64,000 nucleotides of DNA from a bacterium (GTDB lineage: Bacteria; SAR324; XYD2-FULL-50-16), in assembly GCA_032250835.1 (NCBI GenBank), contig JAVVEA010000019.1:1-64000 (forward strand), given 5' to 3'. Shown piece after piece: positions 1-9,277 of this stretch. A program made the translations under genes and the position numbers. The notes under the pieces are model-generated. The model was not told where the DNA came from and searched no databases. It saw nothing but the letters and a program-made list of their open reading frames with translations. Position 1 is the stretch's first letter; each line of letters opens with the position of its first letter.

Positions 1-284
1 CTCTCTTTTGTTCCCCCCAAAAGACGAGCAGACCAGTGAAAAGGTCTTCTTTGTACTCAAGTCAACTAGCTTAATCGACCCGAGTTTGCAAGAATATTTG
101 TGAAAAAAACTTCATCCTAAGCCGTTAATACAAGCGGCCCTAGCCCCAGTAGACCGCAGACCAGTCGCTAAATCGAAAGACCGAACAAAATCCCAAAGGC
201 TTTGGTTGCGGCTCAATGCTTTTTTCGGTAGTATGCCCGCTATACCAACAACACTGCCACCACCCGATCTATTTTTGCTTTCCG

Positions 285-3263
285 ATGGCCAAAAAGAAGG
301 ACGATAAAGAACTCAAGTTAGAGCTTACGTCAGACAAAACTGACGAACCTGAAGAACTTGAGGAAGAACCGGTCGAGTTAGAACCCGACGAAGTCATCCT
401 GCAAAGCGGCGGCACCGATGCCGAGGGACAAGAAACCTTTGGAGCTCTGCTGCCCAAGGCTGATTTTCTGCCCGAGCAATTGGGCATTATCGCCGTACAG
501 CACCGCCCCTTATTCCCGCATATGGTGATTCCTTTGGTGGTGGAAGGGGACATCTACCAAGAAACCTTGGTAGAAGCCCAAAAAGGGCAGGGATACGTGG
601 GCATCGCCCTCTCGACCCCTAAGTTCGACTCAGAAAACCCCAAGGTCGAGGACTTACACAAATACGGCGTTGTCGCGCGCATCGCCAAGGTCTTCGCCCA
701 AGACAGCCACGGCAGCCAGGTGCTGCTAGACGTTTTAGAGCGCATCCGCATCGTCGAGCCCCTAGCCTCGAAGGGCATCATGCGGGCTCGGGTAGAGTAT
801 GTGCACCAAGACCGAGTCAAGGTAAACGACGAGATCCGCGCCTATTCGCGCGAAATCCTGACCAACATGAAGGAGTTGATCCGTCTCAACCCGCTGATTA
901 AAGAAGAGCTCAATCAATTCATTAGCCAGATCAGCATCGACGACCCCTCGCGCCTAGCCGACTTTGCCGCCACCCTGACCAGCGCGGAAAAAGAAGAGTT
1001 GCAGGCCATTTTGGCTACCGTACCGATTGTGCCCCGGCTGGGCAAAACCCTGTTATTGATCAAAAAAGAACTGGAGCTTTCGCGCCTGCAAGCCGAGATC
1101 AGCCAAAAGATCGAAGAGCGCATCAGCGACCACCAGCGGGAGTTCTTTTTAAAAGAACAACTCAAAGAGATCCAAAAGGAACTGGGCATCAGCAAAGATG
1201 AGAAAACCCAGGTGCTTGAAAAGCTTTTGGCGAAGGCCAAAAAGCTGAACTTCTCAGAAGAAGTGCAAGAACGCTTTGATGAGGAGATGAACAAAATCGC
1301 CCTGTTGGACGTGCAAAGCCCTGAATTCAACGTCAGCCGGACCTATCTAGACTGGATCGTATCCTTGCCCTGGGGCTTGCATTCAAAAGAAAACCTGGAC
1401 ATCGTCCGGGCCGAAAAGGTCTTAGATGCCGACCACTACGGCCTTGAAGACATCAAAGAACGGATCATTGAGTTCATCGCCGCTATGAACCTGCGCCAAG
1501 ACAACTCCGGAACGATCCTTTGTTTCGTCGGCCCGCCGGGCGTCGGCAAAACCTCAATCGGTAAGTCCATCGCCCGCGCTATGGGCCGCAAGTTCTACCG
1601 CTTTTCCGTAGGCGGCATGCGCGACGAAGCGGAAATCAAGGGCCACCGTCGCACTTATATCGGGGCTATGCCCGGTAAGTTCATCCAAGCCTTAAAGGGA
1701 GCCAAGTACGCCAACCCGGTGATCATGCTCGACGAAATCGACAAGATCGGCTCCAGCTACCAAGGCGATCCCGCTTCAGCGCTGCTCGAAGTCTTAGACC
1801 CCGAGCAAAACAGCGCTTTTGCGGATCATTACCTGGACCTGCCCTTTGACCTATCCAAGGTGGTCTTCATCACCACCGCCAACCAGCTGGACACTATTCC
1901 GGCGGCCTTATTGGACCGGATGGAAGTGCTTCGGCTCTCGGGTTATATTGCCAACGAAAAGTTGCAAATCGCCAAGAAGTACCTGATCCCCAAGCAGCGT
2001 AAAGCCCACGGCATCAAAGGCAGCCAGATCAGCTTTGCCGACGGCGCTATCCGCCGGATCATCGACGGCTATGCTCGCGAAGCGGGGGTCCGCAAATTAG
2101 AAAACATGATCGAAAAGATCTGTCGCAAGCGAGCCACCGAGATCGTCCGTGGGGTTGAGCTTAAGCAGCCTCGGATCGGCGTCAGTCAAGTTAAAGACTA
2201 CTTGAAGAACCCGATCTTTGAAGACGACGAAATCCACGGCGAAGGGCGACCCGGCGTGGCCACAGGCTTGGCCTGGACCTCTATGGGTGGGTCGATATTG
2301 ACCATCGAGTCCAATTGGGTCCCCTCAAAGGGCCGCAGCTTCCAGCAGACCGGTCAGTTGGGCGAAGTGATGATCGAATCGGCCAAAATCGCCTACAGCT
2401 ACGTGTTAGCCAACGCCGAACGCTACGGCGGCAAGACCGAGTTTTTCGACGAAAAACACCTACATTTGCACGTCCCCGCAGGGGCGACGCCCAAAGACGG
2501 GCCTTCGGCGGGGGTCACCATGGCCTCTGTGTTGATTTCGATGATGCTCGACATCCCGCTCTTGCCCAAACTGGGCATGACCGGGGAACTAACGTTGGTC
2601 GGTGAGGTGCTCCCGATTGGTGGCTTGAAGGAAAAGGTGATCGCCTCAAGGCGCTCCGGGTTGACCCAAATCATCATCCCCGAAGCGAACCGCAAGGACT
2701 ACCTAGAGCTGCCCGACCATGTAAAGGAAAAGCTGGTGATCCATTTTGCCAAGACCTACGACGATGTCTTCCGCTATGCCTTTGACCTCAAGCCCATCTT
2801 TCCCCGGCCCAACCGCCGCAAGACCGATGAGCCGGAAAAAGACCATGGGGCCGCCCCAGCCAAAAAACCAGGACGACCCAAGAAGAACACAACGACGAAA
2901 GCTTCGGCCAAGAAGGTGGGTCGGCCCAAGAAAAACCTGACCGAAACCGCTGAACAGACCCAGGCGGAGGCTCCAACGGCTCGTGGACCCGGTCGACCTA
3001 AGAAAGTAGGACGGCCCAAGAAGAGCGAAGCTGAGAAGGCGGCACCAAAGAAAAAAGTAGGACGCCCCAAGAAGAGCCCAAGCGAAAAAGGGGTAGCCAA
3101 AAAAGTGGGGCGACCCAAAAAGAGCGAAGCTGAGAAGGCAGAGCCAAAGAAAAAGGTGGGGCGGCCCAAGAAAGTGGCGTCAACCCAAAAGGACTCCCAG
3201 GTCTCGACCGATGGAGCGCCTAAGAAGCGGCGCGGACGACCGCCAAAGGCTCCAAAGGAATAA
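285..3263 (+). CDS. lon: ATP-dependent Lon protease with acidic N-terminal extension and Lys/Arg-rich GRP-repeat C-terminal tail
   Basis: Walker A GPPGVGKT, GHRRTYIGAMPG, Walker B MLDEIDK, catalytic PKDGPSAG and GGLKEK. ATG at 285 preferred over ORF start 216. Confidence 0.97.
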   Translation: MAKKKDDKELKLELTSDKTDEPEELEEEPVELEPDEVILQSGGTDAEGQETFGALLPKADFLPEQLGIIAVQHRPLFPHMVIPLVVEGDIYQETLVEAQKGQGYVGIALSTPKFDSENPKVEDLHKYGVVARIAKVFAQDSHGSQVLLDVLERIRIVEPLASKGIMRARVEYVHQDRVKVNDEIRAYSREILTNMKELIRLNPLIKEELNQFISQISIDDPSRLADFAATLTSAEKEELQAILATVPIVPRLGKTLLLIKKELELSRLQAEISQKIEERISDHQREFFLKEQLKEIQKELGISKDEKTQVLEKLLAKAKKLNFSEEVQERFDEEMNKIALLDVQSPEFNVSRTYLDWIVSLPWGLHSKENLDIVRAEKVLDADHYGLEDIKERIIEFIAAMNLRQDNSGTILCFVGPPGVGKTSIGKSIARAMGRKFYRFSVGGMRDEAEIKGHRRTYIGAMPGKFIQALKGAKYANPVIMLDEIDKIGSSYQGDPASALLEVLDPEQNSAFADHYLDLPFDLSKVVFITTANQLDTIPAALLDRMEVLRLSGYIANEKLQIAKKYLIPKQRKAHGIKGSQISFADGAIRRIIDGYAREAGVRKLENMIEKICRKRATEIVRGVELKQPRIGVSQVKDYLKNPIFEDDEIHGEGRPGVATGLAWTSMGGSILTIESNWVPSKGRSFQQTGQLGEVMIESAKIAYSYVLANAERYGGKTEFFDEKHLHLHVPAGATPKDGPSAGVTMASVLISMMLDIPLLPKLGMTGELTLVGEVLPIGGLKEKVIASRRSGLTQIIIPEANRKDYLELPDHVKEKLVIHFAKTYDDVFRYAFDLKPIFPRPNRRKTDEPEKDHGAAPAKKPGRPKKNTTTKASAKKVGRPKKNLTETAEQTQAEAPTARGPGRPKKVGRPKKSEAEKAAPKKKVGRPKKSPSEKGVAKKVGRPKKSEAEKAEPKKKVGRPKKVASTQKDSQVSTDGAPKKRRGRPPKAPKE
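2860..3260 (+). repeat. Coding repeat: 8 GRP (K-K-V-G-R-P-K-K type) motifs in the Lon tail
   Basis: Eight GRP cores counted in the translation; exact DNA repeat aagagcgaagctgagaaggc at 3021-3040 and 3120-3139. Confidence 0.9.
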
Positions 3264-3433: not shown

Positions 3434-5863
3434 TCAGCAATCCAGCACTTCAGATTCCTTTAAGAGCCCTAGACGGACCAAACGCAACAGCGTAGCGGGT
3501 ACACGACTCGGCGTTACCGATACTTGGGTCATCCCCAACCCAGACATAGCCAATAAATCTTCCTCAAGCAGCCTCTGTTCGCCGCAAAAACGCAGTTTCA
3601 GGTCCGGGCGCAAACGGCGACCTCGCTCCGCCGCTAGTTCCACAAACCCCAACAGACTCGGACTGAACCGCAGAAAGGGGTCAGACATCAGGTCCATAGG
3701 GCCGTAGAGAGGACCGAAGCGAGACCAATCGTCGCGCGAAAAGCCCAGCGCCGTTTGCGTCAGATCATTCCCGCCGAAGCTAAAGAAAGAGGCATGCCGC
3801 GCCAATTCGGCGGCGTCCAGCGCGGCCGCAGGTAATTCGATCATCACCCCCCATTCCACCTCAAAGGGCGGCTGCAGGAATCCCCGCTCTTGGCACCATT
3901 GATCAAACAACGGCACCAACCCCTCGATCTCGTGACGGCCATATAAGAGGGCGTTCCACTCGGCGGCAACCCCCACAAAGGGCATCATCACCTGTAACCT
4001 AGGGAGTCGGTGGTGTTTCCGGTGCATCATCTCGCCGACCTCCAAAAAGGCCAAGACCATCATCCGGTACAGCTCGAAATGGGTCAGAGCCAAACGAGCG
4101 CCCCGGTGGCCCAGCATGGGATTCACCTCTCGTTGGGCTTCGATGGCCAAAACCCAATCCTCGGCCCGCCTCTCAGGCAGGAGCGCCGCCAGCTTTTGAG
4201 CGGCGCGGGTCGTCTCTTCGCCCGGCCGGGGCCAAAGTTCATGGCTAGGCAGGTCCAACAGCCGAAGACAAAAGTCCCCTTGGGGCACCCGGTCCAACAG
4301 CTTCAACAAATCCGCTTTGAGCCCTTCACCGGCCACCCGCAATAGTTCGTTCCGGGACTCACCCGCCCCCAGCACTAAGGCCCTCAAGCGGGTCAATTGG
4401 GGCTCTTCGCCTAAGATGTTCTCCAACCGCAGCAGCCCCACCCCCTGGGCCCCCCAATCCAAGGCCCGTCCGATTTCCTTGCTTTGTTCTGCATTAACCA
4501 ACAGACCCATCAACTTAGGTAGTTCCCCCATGACCTTAGCCAATCGTCCTAAGGCTTCGGACTCCGGAGCAGCGCAGGGGCAAAGGCCTTCATAAAGTGC
4601 CGGGGGCGCTTCCAGGGGAACCTCCAACGCAACCTCTTGACCTTCGGTGATCAAGTGTCGATCCAACCGCAAAGCGGCCCCTTCAAAAGCGGCTTCTGGT
4701 AGCATCAGAGCAGGTAGGCCCAAAGAGCGCGCCATTACCGGGCCGTGGGAGGCATAGCCGCCCTGGGTGGTGATCACCGCCTCGGCGGCTTGCAGGGCCG
4801 CCAAATCCTTTGGATACACCTCTTCAACGATCAGAATCTTCGGACCCGGCGGCGCAGACAACAGCGCTTGGGCCGAAAAATAGGCTTTCCCGCTCGCCGC
4901 GCCAGCGTTGCCCGGTATAGCCAACCCCAACTCGAAGGTCCGTTGGGGGTCCGGCCCCACCAAGCGCCCCACCAAAAGCTCCTCCACCTCACTAGGCGCT
5001 AGGGCCTCAGCCAATTGGCGCGGCGTTAGGTGACCCCGTTGGTGCAAGTCCAACAACATTTCTAAACGAGCCTTGGGGTTAGCGATAAAGCTTTCTAAAC
5101 CCAACAGACGCAACCCGCCCGGCCCAGCCAAAAAATGCACCCCGCAAGGGCGCAGCAGGCAGAGTTCCACCGACCTCATGGCCTCGGCTAATGAGGCCGA
5201 TAAGCCCTCGGGAACCTCCTGTTCAACCAACTGCGCGGGTAAAGGATAGGGCTCAAAAAAGCTCCAGGGAACCACTTCTAGCTGGGGTGCGCACAAGCCG
5301 GTGCGGACATCTCGAGCGCGGTAGCGGCCCATCCAGACCGACCCAGCTTCGGGCAGTTGGATTTCCAAGGCTACCCAGGCACCCTCGGGGGCCTGGGCGG
5401 CCAGAAGACCCAAAAACTCGGCCAATTGCCGCTCTCGGTTAGGCGGAAACCCTTGGGCGCGCCCCAGTTGGAGCAGCCGCAAGGCCTCCTCGTCGCTGAG
5501 AAGGTTTTTATTGGCCGGGCGTTGGTTCAGGTCCCCCCAAGTCTCCAGGAGCCGCCTCCAGGCACCTCGCAGGGCCCGGTTAGGCGGAGTGGCATTGGCT
5601 AGTGCTTCGCTCAATCCCAGATAATCCACTTGGGCCCGGGGCGCAAAATCTAGGCTGTCGTAGAGCGACAGGCTTAGGTAAGCCCCGTCGGGAACCTCGG
5701 CCCAAATCAGACGGGCCAGGGATTCGCGCGCCTTGCGGTCCATTGGGACCAACTCGGACGCCGGGGCCACCCAAGGAGTCGTTCCGGGTAACTCCAACTG
5801 AGAAAGCAAATCTAGCCAAGGGGCTAAATCGGTTTGGGCTTTAAGCCGAGTGAAGGGCATCAT
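3434..5863 (-). CDS. Pyruvate phosphate dikinase-like PEP-utilising protein with degenerate N-terminal ATP-grasp domain
   Basis: Swivel domain TTQGGYASHGPVMARSLG; PEP domain motifs GVGLLR, RLLDLPSHE, EVNPMLGHRGARL, MIELPAAAL, FSFGGNDLTQ, CGEQ. Canonical GGKG, SVRSG and LQTR motifs are absent. Confidence 0.85.
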   Translation of the reverse strand: MMPFTRLKAQTDLAPWLDLLSQLELPGTTPWVAPASELVPMDRKARESLARLIWAEVPDGAYLSLSLYDSLDFAPRAQVDYLGLSEALANATPPNRALRGAWRRLLETWGDLNQRPANKNLLSDEEALRLLQLGRAQGFPPNRERQLAEFLGLLAAQAPEGAWVALEIQLPEAGSVWMGRYRARDVRTGLCAPQLEVVPWSFFEPYPLPAQLVEQEVPEGLSASLAEAMRSVELCLLRPCGVHFLAGPGGLRLLGLESFIANPKARLEMLLDLHQRGHLTPRQLAEALAPSEVEELLVGRLVGPDPQRTFELGLAIPGNAGAASGKAYFSAQALLSAPPGPKILIVEEVYPKDLAALQAAEAVITTQGGYASHGPVMARSLGLPALMLPEAAFEGAALRLDRHLITEGQEVALEVPLEAPPALYEGLCPCAAPESEALGRLAKVMGELPKLMGLLVNAEQSKEIGRALDWGAQGVGLLRLENILGEEPQLTRLRALVLGAGESRNELLRVAGEGLKADLLKLLDRVPQGDFCLRLLDLPSHELWPRPGEETTRAAQKLAALLPERRAEDWVLAIEAQREVNPMLGHRGARLALTHFELYRMMVLAFLEVGEMMHRKHHRLPRLQVMMPFVGVAAEWNALLYGRHEIEGLVPLFDQWCQERGFLQPPFEVEWGVMIELPAAALDAAELARHASFFSFGGNDLTQTALGFSRDDWSRFGPLYGPMDLMSDPFLRFSPSLLGFVELAAERGRRLRPDLKLRFCGEQRLLEEDLLAMSGLGMTQVSVTPSRVPATLLRLVRLGLLKESEVLDC

Positions 5864-6639
5864 TTAAAATATCTCGCTCCAGACCGGATGATTTGGGCCG
5901 GCTGGGGGCCGCAAGCTCTGCAAAGCAATGCCCGCAGCTTAGCGACCTCGCTAAAGGCGGGCCCTTCAATCTGGAACCATATGCGGTCACCAAAACGGAC
6001 CCGTCCCCACTGAAAGAGGCTATACAACTCGCGCACCTCTTCACCTTGGTGGAACAAGCGTACCTTAAGTAGCGGAAAGGTTTCCTCGTAGTCCCGCACC
6101 ACCCGGCCTAGGGCCTCTAAGTTGCCGTGGTGGAACAACTCGTTACGGACCTCTACGGGGTATTTGGGGCTACGGTTTTCCAAGCGGCGCGGAGATTGCA
6201 CCCAGTGGGCTTGGGCGGGCGTCGTGGGTTGCGCTTCCTTTAAATCCCCAAAATCCAAGGGCCGACGCCGACGCAACAGAGCCTTCAGTTGCGCCAACAA
6301 AGCGGCAACTTGACTCAAAAGCGCGGGGTCTTGGGGCCGTAGGTAAAGTAATACCAGTTCAAAGGGTATCAGCGGGACACGCAATTCGGGCAGAGCCGGA
6401 ACGATCCAAAGAGGCGATTCCTGGCGGGGCAGGACCAGCAACAGATCAAAGCCGGACAGGCGCTTTAACTGCGACCAGAGCATATCCCATTGCAGCAGTT
6501 GGGCCGACAGATTGAGGCTGATGAATTGGAAGTTTTCAGAAACCAGCCGCTGGTGGAGCTCCGAGGGTTCCCAACGCTCCGGCAACTGCCGGAGCGATGA
6601 GAGGAGTCCTTCTGCGACGGGCTGACCGGCGCGCGGCAT
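5860..6639 (-). CDS. Hypothetical protein with C-terminal HPr-like domain
   Basis: Last ~95 aa (VEVRNELFHHGN...SLFQWG...FGDRIWFQIEG) align by eye with HPr around His15 and Ser46; 4-bp overlap with the PPDK-like gene. Confidence 0.7.
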   Translation of the reverse strand: MPRAGQPVAEGLLSSLRQLPERWEPSELHQRLVSENFQFISLNLSAQLLQWDMLWSQLKRLSGFDLLLVLPRQESPLWIVPALPELRVPLIPFELVLLYLRPQDPALLSQVAALLAQLKALLRRRRPLDFGDLKEAQPTTPAQAHWVQSPRRLENRSPKYPVEVRNELFHHGNLEALGRVVRDYEETFPLLKVRLFHQGEEVRELYSLFQWGRVRFGDRIWFQIEGPAFSEVAKLRALLCRACGPQPAQIIRSGARYFK

Positions 6640-6653
6640 AGGGGTCGCGAGAC

Positions 6654-8570
6654 TTAAGCCTCGACGCTTAGGCCAGGCGGGTTCACAAAACTAGGCACGT
6701 AGCCATTGGCGTTTGCGTCTTCCAGGTGTTTTTCCTTGGAAAGGTCCGTAAACCCAGCCGAGACGGTGGCCAAGAGTTCGCTGATCACGTTACTGACCGA
6801 CTGCATGGTGTTTTCCTTGCGTTTGATCGTGGTCAGGTTGATCTCTAGGTAAATTCCGGGCCGCAGGTGGTAAGGGTTTACCTGACGGTTGAAGGCCTCA
6901 AAACGGTCTTCTAAGAAGTCCAGCCGCTGGTCCAAGATCACCCGCTCCGGGGGGTTTTCATACTTGAAGGTATCGTGGATCTTGCCGCGCAGCATCTGGA
7001 ACTTTTTGGTCAAATACTTGCGCTTTTCGGCGAAGGTATCGTTGAGCTTTTCCATGTCGCTTTTTTCGGGCTGCACAAAGAATATCTCGTCCCACAATTT
7101 AACGGGCTGTTCAGCCTCGTCTGCCGGAGGGAGGTCCAGCTTGACGGGCTCTTCTTTCTTCTTAGCCCCACCGAAGAGTTTGGCAAAAAAGCCAAGTTTC
7201 TCATCCGAGGTTTTGTGGATCGGGCCGCCACCTAGATAAATCTGGCTGACTGACTGATAATCCAAGAAACCCTGCTCGTCGCGGAAATTCTGGTGCACCT
7301 TTTCGTAAACTTCCCAAAGCTTTTGGGCCTGGACCTCAAACTCTTCAATCTGGGTACAGTAGGCGTTACGCAGGGCGTGCAATTGCTCGTCGTCGTAATA
7401 GGCCAGCGTGGCGGCGTAACGCTCGTCGGGCAGTTCCGCACCGGCTTGCTCGCCATATTCGCGGATCACCACTTTACGGGCTTGCTTGAAGTTTTCGATG
7501 TGCTGATAGCCCAGGCGGGTCTTGTCTAAGATTTGGGTCAACGAGTTGACCGCTTTATCAAAGCCCTGGTTGCGCATATTCTCGCGGTCCACAATGCGCT
7601 TGATGTTCTCGCGCACATTCAGCGGGTCGTACTCGCTTTGGGGGATTTCCGAGCCCATATCGCCTAAGCCTTGCAAGAAATCCTTGGAAAGCCATTTGTA
7701 CTGGGGCGACTCGCCTCCGTCTTCAAAGTCCAGATGGGTCTCAAGGCGCTTGAGGCGTTCGATGATCAAAGCGGCTTCGTCCATTTCTGGCTGGCCTTCT
7801 TCGGTCAGTTGGGCTTGAAGCGCCGAGATCTCGTGATCCACTTGGTGCATGATGTAGTCGCTCAAGACCTCGCGGATGATGGTCTCGGTGCCGGTCTGGA
7901 AGTGGAAGATCGGGTTGAGCAGTTCGTTTTCCGAAACGTTGATCGCCAAACTGACGTCCGTAACCGTTTCGGGCTTGATCTTGTTGTCCGAGTAATGCCC
8001 CTTGACCAGTGTGAAGGCGTTGTCCGTACCGACCATCAGGCCAATATCGGTCTTTTCGCGCAGCAGCTTGTTGGTGCGGGCTTGCAGGTCCGAAACACCG
8101 TGTTCCAAGTGGCCTTGGAGATGGCTGTAGATGTTAACCACCGAGCGCTCTAGGGCCTCGTTGTTAAACTGTTCGGCGCCGCCAATCTCTTCGACTAACT
8201 CAGCCACGCTCTGGGGCGTGTAGCGGGTCAGGTTCTTTTCTTCTTCCTGGTCGATCAGGCCGCGGAACTTCTTGGACATCTCGTCTTCGACGGTGACCAA
8301 GTAGCGGTTGTACATGTTATGGAAGCCCTGGTTGAAGTAGTTGTGCAACAACTCCTTGACCGAGCCGGTCACCTGCAACTTCTCCAAGACCTCGGGCGGT
8401 AACTTGGAAGACAAATGGTTTAAGACCTTGTCCACCTCTTCGTCGATGATGCGCTGACTTTCGATATACTCGTTGCGCCCATCGCGGTTGGCGCTGTTGC
8501 GAGAACCGACGGCACTAGCGTCTTCTGGGTGAACCCACTGATCGTTCAAATTGCTTTTTTCCTGCGTCAT
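6654..8570 (-). CDS. cfpA: Cytoplasmic filament protein A (CfpA) homologue
   Basis: Blocks recalled from Treponema CfpA: HPE.SAVGSRNS, KLPPEVLE, NYFNQ, NRYLVTVEDEM, HLQGH, LNVRENIK, GYQHIENFK, LPDERY, NPYHLRPG, IKRK. ATG at 8570 has SD GAAGGTGG; the ORF extends to 8654. Confidence 0.88.
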   Translation of the reverse strand: MTQEKSNLNDQWVHPEDASAVGSRNSANRDGRNEYIESQRIIDEEVDKVLNHLSSKLPPEVLEKLQVTGSVKELLHNYFNQGFHNMYNRYLVTVEDEMSKKFRGLIDQEEEKNLTRYTPQSVAELVEEIGGAEQFNNEALERSVVNIYSHLQGHLEHGVSDLQARTNKLLREKTDIGLMVGTDNAFTLVKGHYSDNKIKPETVTDVSLAINVSENELLNPIFHFQTGTETIIREVLSDYIMHQVDHEISALQAQLTEEGQPEMDEAALIIERLKRLETHLDFEDGGESPQYKWLSKDFLQGLGDMGSEIPQSEYDPLNVRENIKRIVDRENMRNQGFDKAVNSLTQILDKTRLGYQHIENFKQARKVVIREYGEQAGAELPDERYAATLAYYDDEQLHALRNAYCTQIEEFEVQAQKLWEVYEKVHQNFRDEQGFLDYQSVSQIYLGGGPIHKTSDEKLGFFAKLFGGAKKKEEPVKLDLPPADEAEQPVKLWDEIFFVQPEKSDMEKLNDTFAEKRKYLTKKFQMLRGKIHDTFKYENPPERVILDQRLDFLEDRFEAFNRQVNPYHLRPGIYLEINLTTIKRKENTMQSVSNVISELLATVSAGFTDLSKEKHLEDANANGYVPSFVNPPGLSVEA

Positions 8571-8779
8571 AACCACCTTCGGTTTCGTCTGGATGGACTC
8601 AAAAGAGGCCCCCACAAACTGCTCAGACTTGTCCGCAAAGTCTAGGGTTGACACCCCTGGATGTCAAGCCAAAACGGTTTTTGGCTAGGGCGGCCTTTGA
8701 CATTTTACCGGCGCTGCTCCAAAGTGGGCGCACGCCGAAGCGAGCAGGATAGGCCAGCAATCTTTAAGGGAACCCTCAG

Positions 8780-9277
8780 ATGAGCGACAGCAACGTAACC
8801 CAGGCTTACAAGCCTTCGGTTGAACCCGCCGTGATCGAGCGGGTGCAAGCGGCGATCGAGGCAATATACCAAGAAAAGATGCACCGCGTCACCCGCATCA
8901 AAGACCATATTTGGGTGATCAGCCAGACGGGCTATAACTTAAGCGTGATCGTCACCCACCTGTTGGTGATCTTTGATGCTGAGATGTTCGAGACCATGGC
9001 CGCGGAGCGGCAGCCTTACCTTGAGGAGTTATTGCATCTAAACGCCCACCAAGTAAAAGACGCCAAGTTTTGTTTGCTCAAGGAAGCGACCCATTTGCGC
9101 GTGCTTTGCGACAACACAAAAATTGACGAAGAGCGGATCCGCAACTATCTGACCGAGTTCAAGGAACTTTACTTAGTCTTGGAAACCCAGCTGGCCGAGC
9201 GCTTCTTTCCGGACCTGGAAACCGCCGAAGACGTCGCCACTTCCGTCGAAGCCCCGCCTGAGGACCAAATTATATGA
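8780..9277 (+). CDS. Hypothetical protein, possibly YbjN/CesT chaperone-like fold
   Basis: Acidic 165-aa ORF with EELLHLN...AKFCL pattern; overlaps ccmA start. Confidence 0.55.
   Translation: MSDSNVTQAYKPSVEPAVIERVQAAIEAIYQEKMHRVTRIKDHIWVISQTGYNLSVIVTHLLVIFDAEMFETMAAERQPYLEELLHLNAHQVKDAKFCLLKEATHLRVLCDNTKIDEERIRNYLTEFKELYLVLETQLAERFFPDLETAEDVATSVEAPPEDQII

Follow-up and report, generated by a model that had tools for sequence, protein, structure and literature searches.

What does the gene encode that stands between cfpA, the gene for a cytoplasmic filament protein, and a gene for an enzyme resembling pyruvate phosphate dikinase (PPDK), and how might its product be related to those of its two neighbors? 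The question is raised by a stretch of 64,000 nucleotides from a bacterium of the SAR324 lineage (positions 1 to 64,000 of contig JAVVEA010000019.1, assembly GCA_032250835.1, referred to here as the window), in which the gene, an open reading frame (ORF) of 259 amino acids that we call X, occupies positions 5860-6639 of the minus strand according to the ORF listing and the homologue searches. X is a two-domain cytoplasmic protein and a short, diverged member of the uncharacterized TP_0747 family of Spirochaetota and SAR324/Lambdaproteobacteria. Its last ~100 residues are predicted to adopt an HPr-like fold, a conclusion on which two independent predictors agree and which is well supported for a prediction, and a conserved histidine, His170, occupies the place of the phospho-acceptor His15 of HPr. 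The strongest context for X is provided by the downstream enzyme, which utilizes phosphoenolpyruvate (PEP) and is translationally coupled to X, and by cfpA upstream. What is new here is the occurrence of a predicted HPr-fold module, whose active-site motif diverges from that of HPr, in a new architecture and with a new partner.

Predicted Fold of X

The AlphaFold2 model of full-length X, built on a 99-row alignment, has a mean predicted local distance difference test score (pLDDT) of 88.1 and consists of two domains connected by a low-confidence linker. The N-terminal domain (residues 1-135, positions 6235-6639 of the minus strand, like all coordinates of X given below) is modeled with pLDDT mostly of 85-96 in the element order helix-helix-strand-helix-strand-strand-strand-helix, and is short in comparison with the 200-250 amino acids of typical TP_0747-family members. 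The linker (residues 136-158, positions 6166-6234) is partly disordered, with pLDDT below 50 at residues 141-148. The C-terminal domain (residues 159-259, positions 5863-6165) is composed of strands at residues 160-163, 192-197, 200-202, and 219-225 and of helices at residues 171-187, 205-208, and 232-242. A separate AlphaFold2 model of residues 153-259, built on a 40-row alignment of the window and locus sequences, has a pLDDT of 88.7 and a predicted TM-score (pTM) of 0.82, with the order strand-helix-strand-strand-helix-strand-helix.

When the domain model was compared with the PDB using Foldseek, the first 30 matches listed were all HPr or Crh, aligned over 84-100 columns with probabilities of 0.51-1.00, target-normalized TM-scores of 0.44-0.70, and root-mean-square deviations of 2.8-5.4 Å; in all but one of the 30 the probability is 0.91 or more, and in all but one the TM-score is 0.56 or more. 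The HPr family accounts for 32 of the 43 matches listed for the domain model, with NPr and one more phosphocarrier lower down, and for 21 of the 49 listed for the full-length query. The best non-HPr matches, MoaE and RCK_C, have probabilities below 0.5 and TM-scores below 0.45. The ESM Atlas, which has its own model, leads to the same fold: after the clusters of the family itself, all four further rows bear PF00381 and correspond to HPr, DhaM, and HPr-Enzyme I fusions, with TM-scores by query of 0.59-0.65. A feature search of the Atlas with the domain alone gave no usable match among named clusters.

The predicted structure thus has the open-faced fold of ~85 residues that is characteristic of PF00381, and the X domain resembles HPr (PtsH), NPr (PtsO), and Crh in fold and size, with target-normalized TM-scores of up to 0.70. 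As in HPr, a histidine is placed at the N-terminal end of helix 1: His170 (codon 6130-6132, checked), the candidate phospho-acceptor, directly precedes helix 171-187. A first-pass annotation of this DNA, made from the letters alone, had proposed an HPr fold for the last ~100 residues with this very codon as the equivalent of His15; the peptide that it quoted is real and lies on the minus strand as residues 159-259, and the AlphaFold2, Foldseek, and Atlas results, all of which concern predicted structures, agree with the proposal.

One may ask whether the resemblance is an artefact, caused either by a wrong prediction or by a generic small α/β fold in which His170 is merely structural. Both structures are indeed predictions, the Foldseek E-values do not fall to 0.001 with either the domain or the full-length query (the best for the domain is 4.7e-3), and the single-sequence hhalign scores given below are unspecific. 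The PDB contains ferredoxin-like domains and other folds with the same order of elements in far greater number than HPr, and yet it is HPr-family chains that fill the first 30 matches listed; the two predictors are independent and agree, and the profile-profile alignment described below runs co-linearly through 79 columns and outscores all of 200 shuffled profiles. An artefact is on this evidence very unlikely.

Family Membership and Conserved Residues

A word-indexed search returned four close relatives of X with 52-63% identity, one of them from a Candidatus Lambdaproteobacteria bacterium. A phmmer scan, exhaustive over 1.84 billion representatives, yielded 95 proteins at E ≤ 1e-3, including 84 at E ≤ 1e-10, with the best E-values being ~1e-50. 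These homologues are mostly 300-360 amino acids long and nearly all align through X residues ~135-255, the C-terminal domain of ~100 amino acids being what they have in common with X. The nearest Atlas clusters of X (score 0.89-0.90, 207-213 shared features) carry PF27497, TP_0747_N (Pfam 38.1), in 92-98% of their members; the C-terminal domain bears no Pfam family in these clusters, and Pfam 38.1 models only the N-terminal domain of the TP_0747 family. Membership of the family is further indicated by the place of X between cfpA and a PPDK-like gene, both in the window and at the other loci described below. With its 259 amino acids X is shorter than the ~300-360 of the family, and the clade that it forms with four relatives (P0002-P0005) is likewise short, at 254-270 amino acids.

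X matched no Pfam or NCBIfam family, whole or in halves, in scans with a Pfam set that predates PF27497. The N-terminal region, which the first-pass annotation had called unrecognized, is so with respect to these scans, but its relatives carry TP_0747_N. Comparison of the N-terminal domain with E. coli Crr, PtsN, RapZ, FruB, DhaM, PtsI, DhaL, and Hpf by hhalign gave no signal, the best P being 0.064 over 13 columns. Sequence-profile searches of the PDB with the family returned only chance-level matches (Mediator Med6, ribosomal proteins, and an RxLR effector with E 0.0018 over a helical stretch) and found no solved structure of a family member. No paper on TP0747/TP_0747 or PF27497 was found in the literature searched, which excludes subscription journals.

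Conservation was read from a 99-sequence alignment of the window relatives and the phmmer representatives, a set not chosen through the His motif. In this unbiased set the position of His170 is His in 94 of 99 sequences, so that the conservation on which the first-pass proposal depended does hold. The residues around it are also strongly conserved, namely Gly at position 172 (92/99), Asn at 173 (97/99), Glu at 175 (97/99), Asn at 166 (94/98), Glu at 167 (82/98), and Trp at 177 (89/97). The His-His-Gly-Asn motif remarked on in the first pass is that of the window; its second His (position 171, codon 6127-6129), however, is Asn in 82 of the 99. A second conserved patch contains Leu208 (99/99), Phe209 (97/99), Trp211 (95/99), and Gly212 (95/99). 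Altogether, conservation of 90% or more is found at 17 positions of the domain, and 8 of these lie in residues 164-176, which comprise the loop between strand 1 and helix 1 and the start of helix 1, and 6 in residues 208-217, which comprise helix 2 and the following loop. Going by hhalign, we take these two segments to correspond to the HPr segments that form the active-site and partner face.

The tripeptide Ser207-Leu208-Phe209 (positions 6013-6021; Ser207 codon 6019-6021, Leu-Phe 6013-6018) is paired by hhalign with Ser46-Leu47-Phe48 of HPr, and the family resembles HPr in having Ser, Thr, or Ala followed by Leu-Phe at the start of helix 2. The equivalent of Ser46 that had been noted for the window is therefore present and aligned there, but position 207 varies among Ser (42), Thr (28), Ala (22), Asn (4), and others (3) in the 99 sequences, and because of this variation the serine is not a constant feature of the TP_0747 family. 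Phosphorylation of Ser46 is not universal among HPr proteins either.

The clade of the window also differs from the family consensus in its motifs, which read His-His-Gly/Ala-Asn-Leu-Glu-Ala-Leu and Gln-Trp-Gly-Arg-Val-Arg. Together with the partner enzyme of the window, which is the most diverged, these variants may reflect co-evolution.

The polar cluster around the histidine could also be read as a binding site, with Asn166, Glu167, His170, Asn173, and Glu175 on an HPr-like scaffold binding a small molecule or a metal that reports on the metabolic state to the enzyme or the filament. Regulators of the NiaR type reportedly use their 3H domain as such a sensor, and the high conservation of Asn166, Glu167, Asn173, and Glu175 would fit this role. 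No structure other than HPr scored well, however, MoaE and RCK_C being the next best, no 3H-domain entry appears among the Foldseek matches listed, and no ligand-binding family was matched in the Pfam scans. We regard a sensor function as unlikely.

Sequence Relation to HPr

The resemblance to HPr is beyond chance at the level of the fold but weak at the level of the sequence. The C-terminal domain alone matched no Pfam family at E ≤ 10, none of the 99 family members matched PF00381 at E ≤ 0.01, and X has no NCBIfam HPr match, which is what the first-pass annotation had expected of standard HPr models. The profile comparisons made with hhalign used as HPr-family references ptsH, npr, fruB, and dhaM from E. 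coli K-12, in addition to close HPr relatives from a protein search. Aligned locally with the shallow HPr alignment, the domain alignment gave a P of 0.012; global alignment with it failed, with a score of 2.7, a co-linear alignment being obtained in local mode only. A broader profile, composed of 30 HPr sequences, NPr, and the HPr domains of FruB and DhaM, scored 21.1 in local mode, with a P of 0.0033 and a probability of 9.8%, the alignment extending co-linearly through 79 columns. The highest score among 200 column-shuffled HPr profiles was 20.5 (mean 10.6, standard deviation 2.1), and a reversed profile gave 11.8. Both local alignments have the same register, in which His170 is paired with His15, Ser207-Leu-Phe with Ser46-Leu-Phe, and the last strand with the last strand. 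It is also the register that had been drawn by eye in the first pass.

The single-sequence controls are less favorable to a relation with HPr. HPr and NPr scored 17.8 and 15.0, respectively, both in register, while the alignments with FruB and DhaM fell on the wrong part of these proteins and missed their HPr domains, and one of 14 unrelated proteins, Hpf, scored 17.4, on a par with HPr. As the sequence similarity is marginal and the controls are unspecific, the domain may share its ancestry with HPr, or its fold may be convergent. The claim that stands on solid ground is that of the modeled fold and site geometry.

The active-site signature of HPr has an Arg two residues after the His. The sequence at this site is Phe-His-His-Gly-Asn in the window and Phe-His-Asn-Gly-Asn in the family, with Gly taking the place of the Arg in 92 of 99 sequences. 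Moreover, HPr is a free protein of ~85 amino acids, whereas the X domain is the C-terminal part of a protein of 259-350 amino acids. X is consequently not a member of the HPr family of the phosphotransferase system (PTS) as that family is defined, since it lacks both the match to the hidden Markov model and the active-site signature and its domain is fused to another.

An ordinary PTS phosphocarrier, that is, an HPr or NPr acting with Enzyme I and Enzyme II in sugar uptake or in nitrogen-PTS signaling, would share with X the fold and the position of the His only. Such an assignment is opposed by the missing PF00381 and NCBIfam HPr matches and by the fusion to a TP_0747-type N-terminal domain. 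The partner of HPr is Enzyme I, whereas that of X is PPDK-like, and no Enzyme II genes were seen: the conserved neighbors are cfpA and the PPDK-like enzyme, not ptsI or Enzyme II genes, and Pfam scans of the 44 other ORFs of the window found no PTS component, these being ordinary chromosomal genes. A role of X as a conventional PTS carrier is hardly credible.

Gene Neighborhood

In the window, X is the middle gene of a unit on the minus strand whose first gene, cfpA (positions 6654-8654), encodes a homologue of cytoplasmic filament protein A that matches NCBIfam NF040882 at 6.1e-186 with 619.8 bits, the cut-off being 500. The stop codon of X and the start codon of the downstream enzyme overlap in an ATGA (positions 5860-5863, minus strand), as found in the ORF listing and by a codon check. 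Because the flanking genes, a Lon protease gene with its end at 3263 and an ORF that begins at 8780, sit on the other strand, cfpA, X, and the PPDK-like gene look like a three-gene operon.

To place this arrangement in a broader frame, loci were searched in one genome per species with the patterns LFHNGNVE and N[SAT]LFKWGK and a 32-row alignment (A3). This gave at least 599 pattern matches, 557 of them confirmed by tblastn, and the locus figures that follow refer to the best 80 of these 557. Since it was the His motif that led to these 80 loci, their His is conserved by construction and was not used as evidence. They are mostly from Spirochaetota (Leptospirales, Spirochaetales, and others), with no Treponema among the loci kept, and nine come from bins assigned to SAR324, Lambdaproteobacteria, or 'Deltaproteobacteria'.

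Where at least 1.5 kb of upstream sequence is available (72 loci), a CfpA gene directly precedes X in 71 cases; where at least 2 kb is available downstream (also 72 loci), a PEP-utilizing enzyme directly follows it in 67, the gap between X and the enzyme being mostly 20-60 nucleotides. The full triad is present in 58 of the 64 loci with room on both sides. Locus L023 is the sole one with upstream room and no CfpA homologue before X. At L029, L030, and L074 the gene after X is one of ~240 amino acids, and at L029 the next gene encodes a VWA-domain protein.

The same gene order can be recognized in treponemes. For T. pallidum, one comparative paper gives TP0746 as PPDK (901 amino acids) and TP0748 as CfpA (678 amino acids), both on the reverse strand (PMC3373638). 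For T. denticola, a transcriptome paper, the single one in the literature searched that names TDE0843, describes TDE0842 (cfpA), TDE0843 (a conserved hypothetical protein), and TDE0844 (a putative PPDK) as repressed together (PMC3914990). TP0747 and TDE0843 are compared with X here by the gene order given in these papers, not by sequence; X is like the TP_0747 family and TDE0843 in the order cfpA-hypothetical-PPDK, in addition to the shared C-terminal domain and the PF27497 neighbors in the Atlas. These papers treat cfpA as a treponemal gene. A full-length CfpA homologue is present in the window, where it is recognized by NF040882, and CfpA is also found at nine SAR324-type loci (L001-L008 and L051), which widens the range of cfpA: the cytoplasmic filament protein is not confined to spirochaetes. 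No paper dealing with the cytoplasmic filament together with HPr in spirochetes was found in the literature searched, which excludes subscription journals and with them the original cfpA papers.

Partner Enzyme

The downstream gene (positions 3434-5863, minus strand) encodes a PPDK-like PEP-utilizing enzyme of 809 amino acids with PF00391 at residues 341-394 and PF02896 at residues 452-792. Its layout consists of a diverged, shortened N-terminal region of ~260 amino acids, a swivel His domain, and a PEP-binding barrel. The catalytic His of the swivel domain, His373, is located in the motif GGYASH (positions 4745-4747, minus strand, codon checked).

By sequence models, the window enzyme qualifies as neither a PPDK nor an Enzyme I. 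Its score against the PPDK model TIGR01828 is 253 bits for a cut-off of 843, covering model positions 339-856 only, and it lacks canonical residues of the ATP-grasp site; it has no PF05524, the HPr-binding N-terminal domain of Enzyme I, and scores 86 bits against TIGR01417, whose cut-off is 341.7. The downstream enzymes of the relatives, which are 862-885 amino acids long in 59 of 62 cases (the others having 788, 844, and 962), differ from Enzyme I in aligning end to end with PPDK instead. They score 477-718 bits against TIGR01828, all below 843, and align with the PPDK of C. symbiosum (1dik) with 561 bits; their match to Pfam PPDK_N is weak and partial.

In the window enzyme, by comparison with PPDK, the N-terminal region is shortened and largely unrecognizable. 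Residues 1-260 (positions 5084-5863, minus strand) have the same pattern of guanine-cytosine content by codon position as the rest of the gene. Their only resemblance to an ATP-grasp domain is faint, in frame, and to its second half, and frameshifted remnants were not seen; in the first ~110 residues no ATP-grasp homology was detectable. When residues 1-300 were used to look for homologues, no candidate among the 8000 scored reached E ≤ 0.001; the query protein itself was absent from the result, and the search is uninformative. Close to the boundary between the diverged and the conserved part, a terminator-like hairpin with an 8-bp stem and six T lies inside the ORF (positions 5136-5154, minus strand); the number of terminator-like sites in the region is not above that of shuffles.

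Fourteen sites were tabulated over 36 aligned enzymes, namely that of the window and 35 of the 62 available, using the C. symbiosum numbering of the 1dik alignment. By the mutagenesis literature on the C. symbiosum enzyme, the residues named below are catalytic, Arg92 and Glu323 being essential in the ATP-grasp site. The partner enzymes share with PPDK the three-domain architecture and the swivel His, which is kept in 36 of 36. In the PEP site, Glu745 is kept in 36 of 36, Asn768 in 35, Cys831 in 34, and Arg617 in 32, while Arg561 and Asp769 are each kept in 30, the same 30 of 36 having the equivalents of both. The nucleotide site is where they differ from PPDK: the equivalent of Arg92 is Arg in 0 of 36 (Val in 33), and that of Glu323 is Glu in 0 of 36 (Lys 23, Arg 10, His 2, Asp 1). 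The position of Lys22, a residue whose role in PPDK is treated in a published study (PMC4844700), is Arg in 34 of 36.

The window enzyme keeps the equivalents of all six PEP-site residues, Arg561, Arg617, Glu745, Asn768, Asp769, and Cys831. On this reading of its residues, it could still exchange phosphate between PEP and the swivel His, although without the canonical nucleotide site, and its catalytic abilities would thus be those of Enzyme I. Six SAR324-type enzymes (L002-L005, L007, and L008) are without the equivalents of Arg561 and Asp769, two of them also without that of Cys831, and may be catalytically inert at the PEP site.

Possible Phosphotransfer between the Enzyme and X

The residues conserved on the two proteins suggest a relay like that of Enzyme I and HPr, in which a phosphoryl group would pass from PEP to the His of the enzyme and from there to His170 of X. 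In the proposed mechanism, the intact PEP site of the enzyme would phosphorylate its own swivel His373. With the nucleotide-binding domain degenerate, the swivel His would then deliver the phosphoryl group to His170 of X rather than to AMP and pyrophosphate, by the same logic as in Enzyme I and HPr but reached from a PPDK ancestor. Phospho-X would act on a target through the TP_0747-type N-terminal domain, and the co-transcribed CfpA filament is the obvious candidate for this target. The data themselves establish the ORF, its family, its predicted fold, the conserved His, the gene order, and the state of the enzyme's residues; from these we infer the binding of X to the enzyme, the phosphotransfer, and the link to CfpA function, and we give the relay somewhat less than even credence.

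The proposed relay would follow the same route as in the Enzyme I/HPr pair and in fusions of the DhaM, FruB, and PtsA type, namely from PEP to a swivel His (PF00391) and on to a His on an HPr fold. The gene of X adjoins that of an enzyme carrying both the PF00391 swivel-His and the PF02896 PEP-binding domains, a likeness to HPr, and the Atlas structure matches of the X domain are proteins having a PTS-HPr and a PEP-utilizer part, as in HPr-Enzyme I fusions. The window enzyme differs from Enzyme I in the missing HPr-binding domain. The invariant swivel His and the conserved His170 favor phospho-His chemistry.

Several observations weigh against a relay built on HPr. To the Foldseek E-values, the failure of PF00381 and of the NCBIfam HPr models to match, the displaced FruB and DhaM alignments, the score of Hpf, the possibility of a convergent fold, and the Gly at the place of the signature Arg must be added three that concern the partners. 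No protein in which X is fused to the enzyme was found among the 95 representatives, the longest of which has 418 amino acids, nor was any fusion of X to CfpA. In five of the 72 loci with room downstream (L029, L030, L039, L061, and L074), X has no adjacent PPDK-like gene. Finally, the six SAR324-type partner enzymes have lost PEP-site residues while X keeps its His motif, and PEP-driven loading is therefore not universal.

We have also considered that the HPr-fold domain is not phosphorylated at all and is a docking or regulatory module, through which X binds to the PPDK-like enzyme, to the CfpA filament, or to the two of them. X could then act either as an adaptor holding the enzyme on the filament or as an allosteric subunit, with the patches His-Asn-Gly-Asn and Leu-Phe-Lys-Trp-Gly-Lys forming the binding surface. 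The synteny data fit this possibility equally well, and the missing catalytic Arg and HPr signature are in line with it. So are the partner enzymes, all 36 of which are without the canonical ATP-site residues, in addition to the six without those of the PEP site, and some of which may be inert scaffolds. Docking also accommodates more readily the five loci in which no enzyme gene adjoins X, and the conserved aromatic residues, the Trp at position 177 and Trp211, suit an interface. There is precedent in HPr itself, which regulates several enzymes by binding alone, and the PDB matches include its complexes with glycogen phosphorylase, Rsd, and FruR. What docking does not account for is a His at the exact phospho-acceptor position in 94 of 99 sequences, and a swivel His of the partner that is invariant even where other catalytic residues have decayed, which argues for retained phospho-His chemistry. 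A docking role is, all in all, tentative and nearly as likely as the relay.

A prediction of the complex between the window enzyme (809 amino acids) and the C-terminal domain of X (107 amino acids) gave an interface score (ipSAE) of 0.00 in both runs, which had no controls, and speaks neither for nor against binding.

In its widest form, the proposal would be that the 'PPDK' linked to cfpA in spirochaetes and SAR324 bacteria is no metabolic dikinase but stands, in the manner of Enzyme I, at the head of a two-protein phosphorelay to His170 that arose independently of the PTS and whose output would control the assembly or function of the CfpA filament. This extended version is doubtful, and we put it forward as speculation.

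Other Features of the Region

A promoter-like site (TTGACA, a spacing of 17 nucleotides, TAGACT) lies at positions 8639-8667 of the minus strand and overlaps the GTG taken as the start of cfpA. Because the match to the CfpA family begins only at residue 41, the real start of cfpA is probably further downstream. The Lon protease on the other side of the unit (positions 216-3263, plus strand, 1015 amino acids) has an AT-hook motif near its C-terminus, at residues 978-989, and its counterpart at the SAR324 locus L051 is 73% identical.

Implications

Treponemes have long been known to possess CfpA filaments, but the mechanism of these filaments is not understood. The gene flanked by cfpA and 'PPDK' carries a predicted HPr-fold domain with a conserved His at the phospho-acceptor position, and the triad has been kept in dozens of Spirochaetota species as well as in SAR324/Lambdaproteobacteria. 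Together, these observations allow a concrete biochemical hypothesis to be framed for this locus for the first time: the enzyme and X would be linked by phosphotransfer or by docking. If the loss of Arg92 and Glu323 also holds in the T. pallidum and T. denticola enzymes, their annotation as metabolic PPDK would need checking.

The pairing of a PPDK-type enzyme with an HPr-fold carrier is the step that has been proposed for the origin of Enzyme I, and the present locus would, if the proposal is true, be a second example of such a pairing. Should the relay indeed lead to the filament, the PEP/pyruvate state would be tied to a bacterial cytoskeletal element, and the PPDK adjacent to cfpA in treponemes would have to be re-examined.

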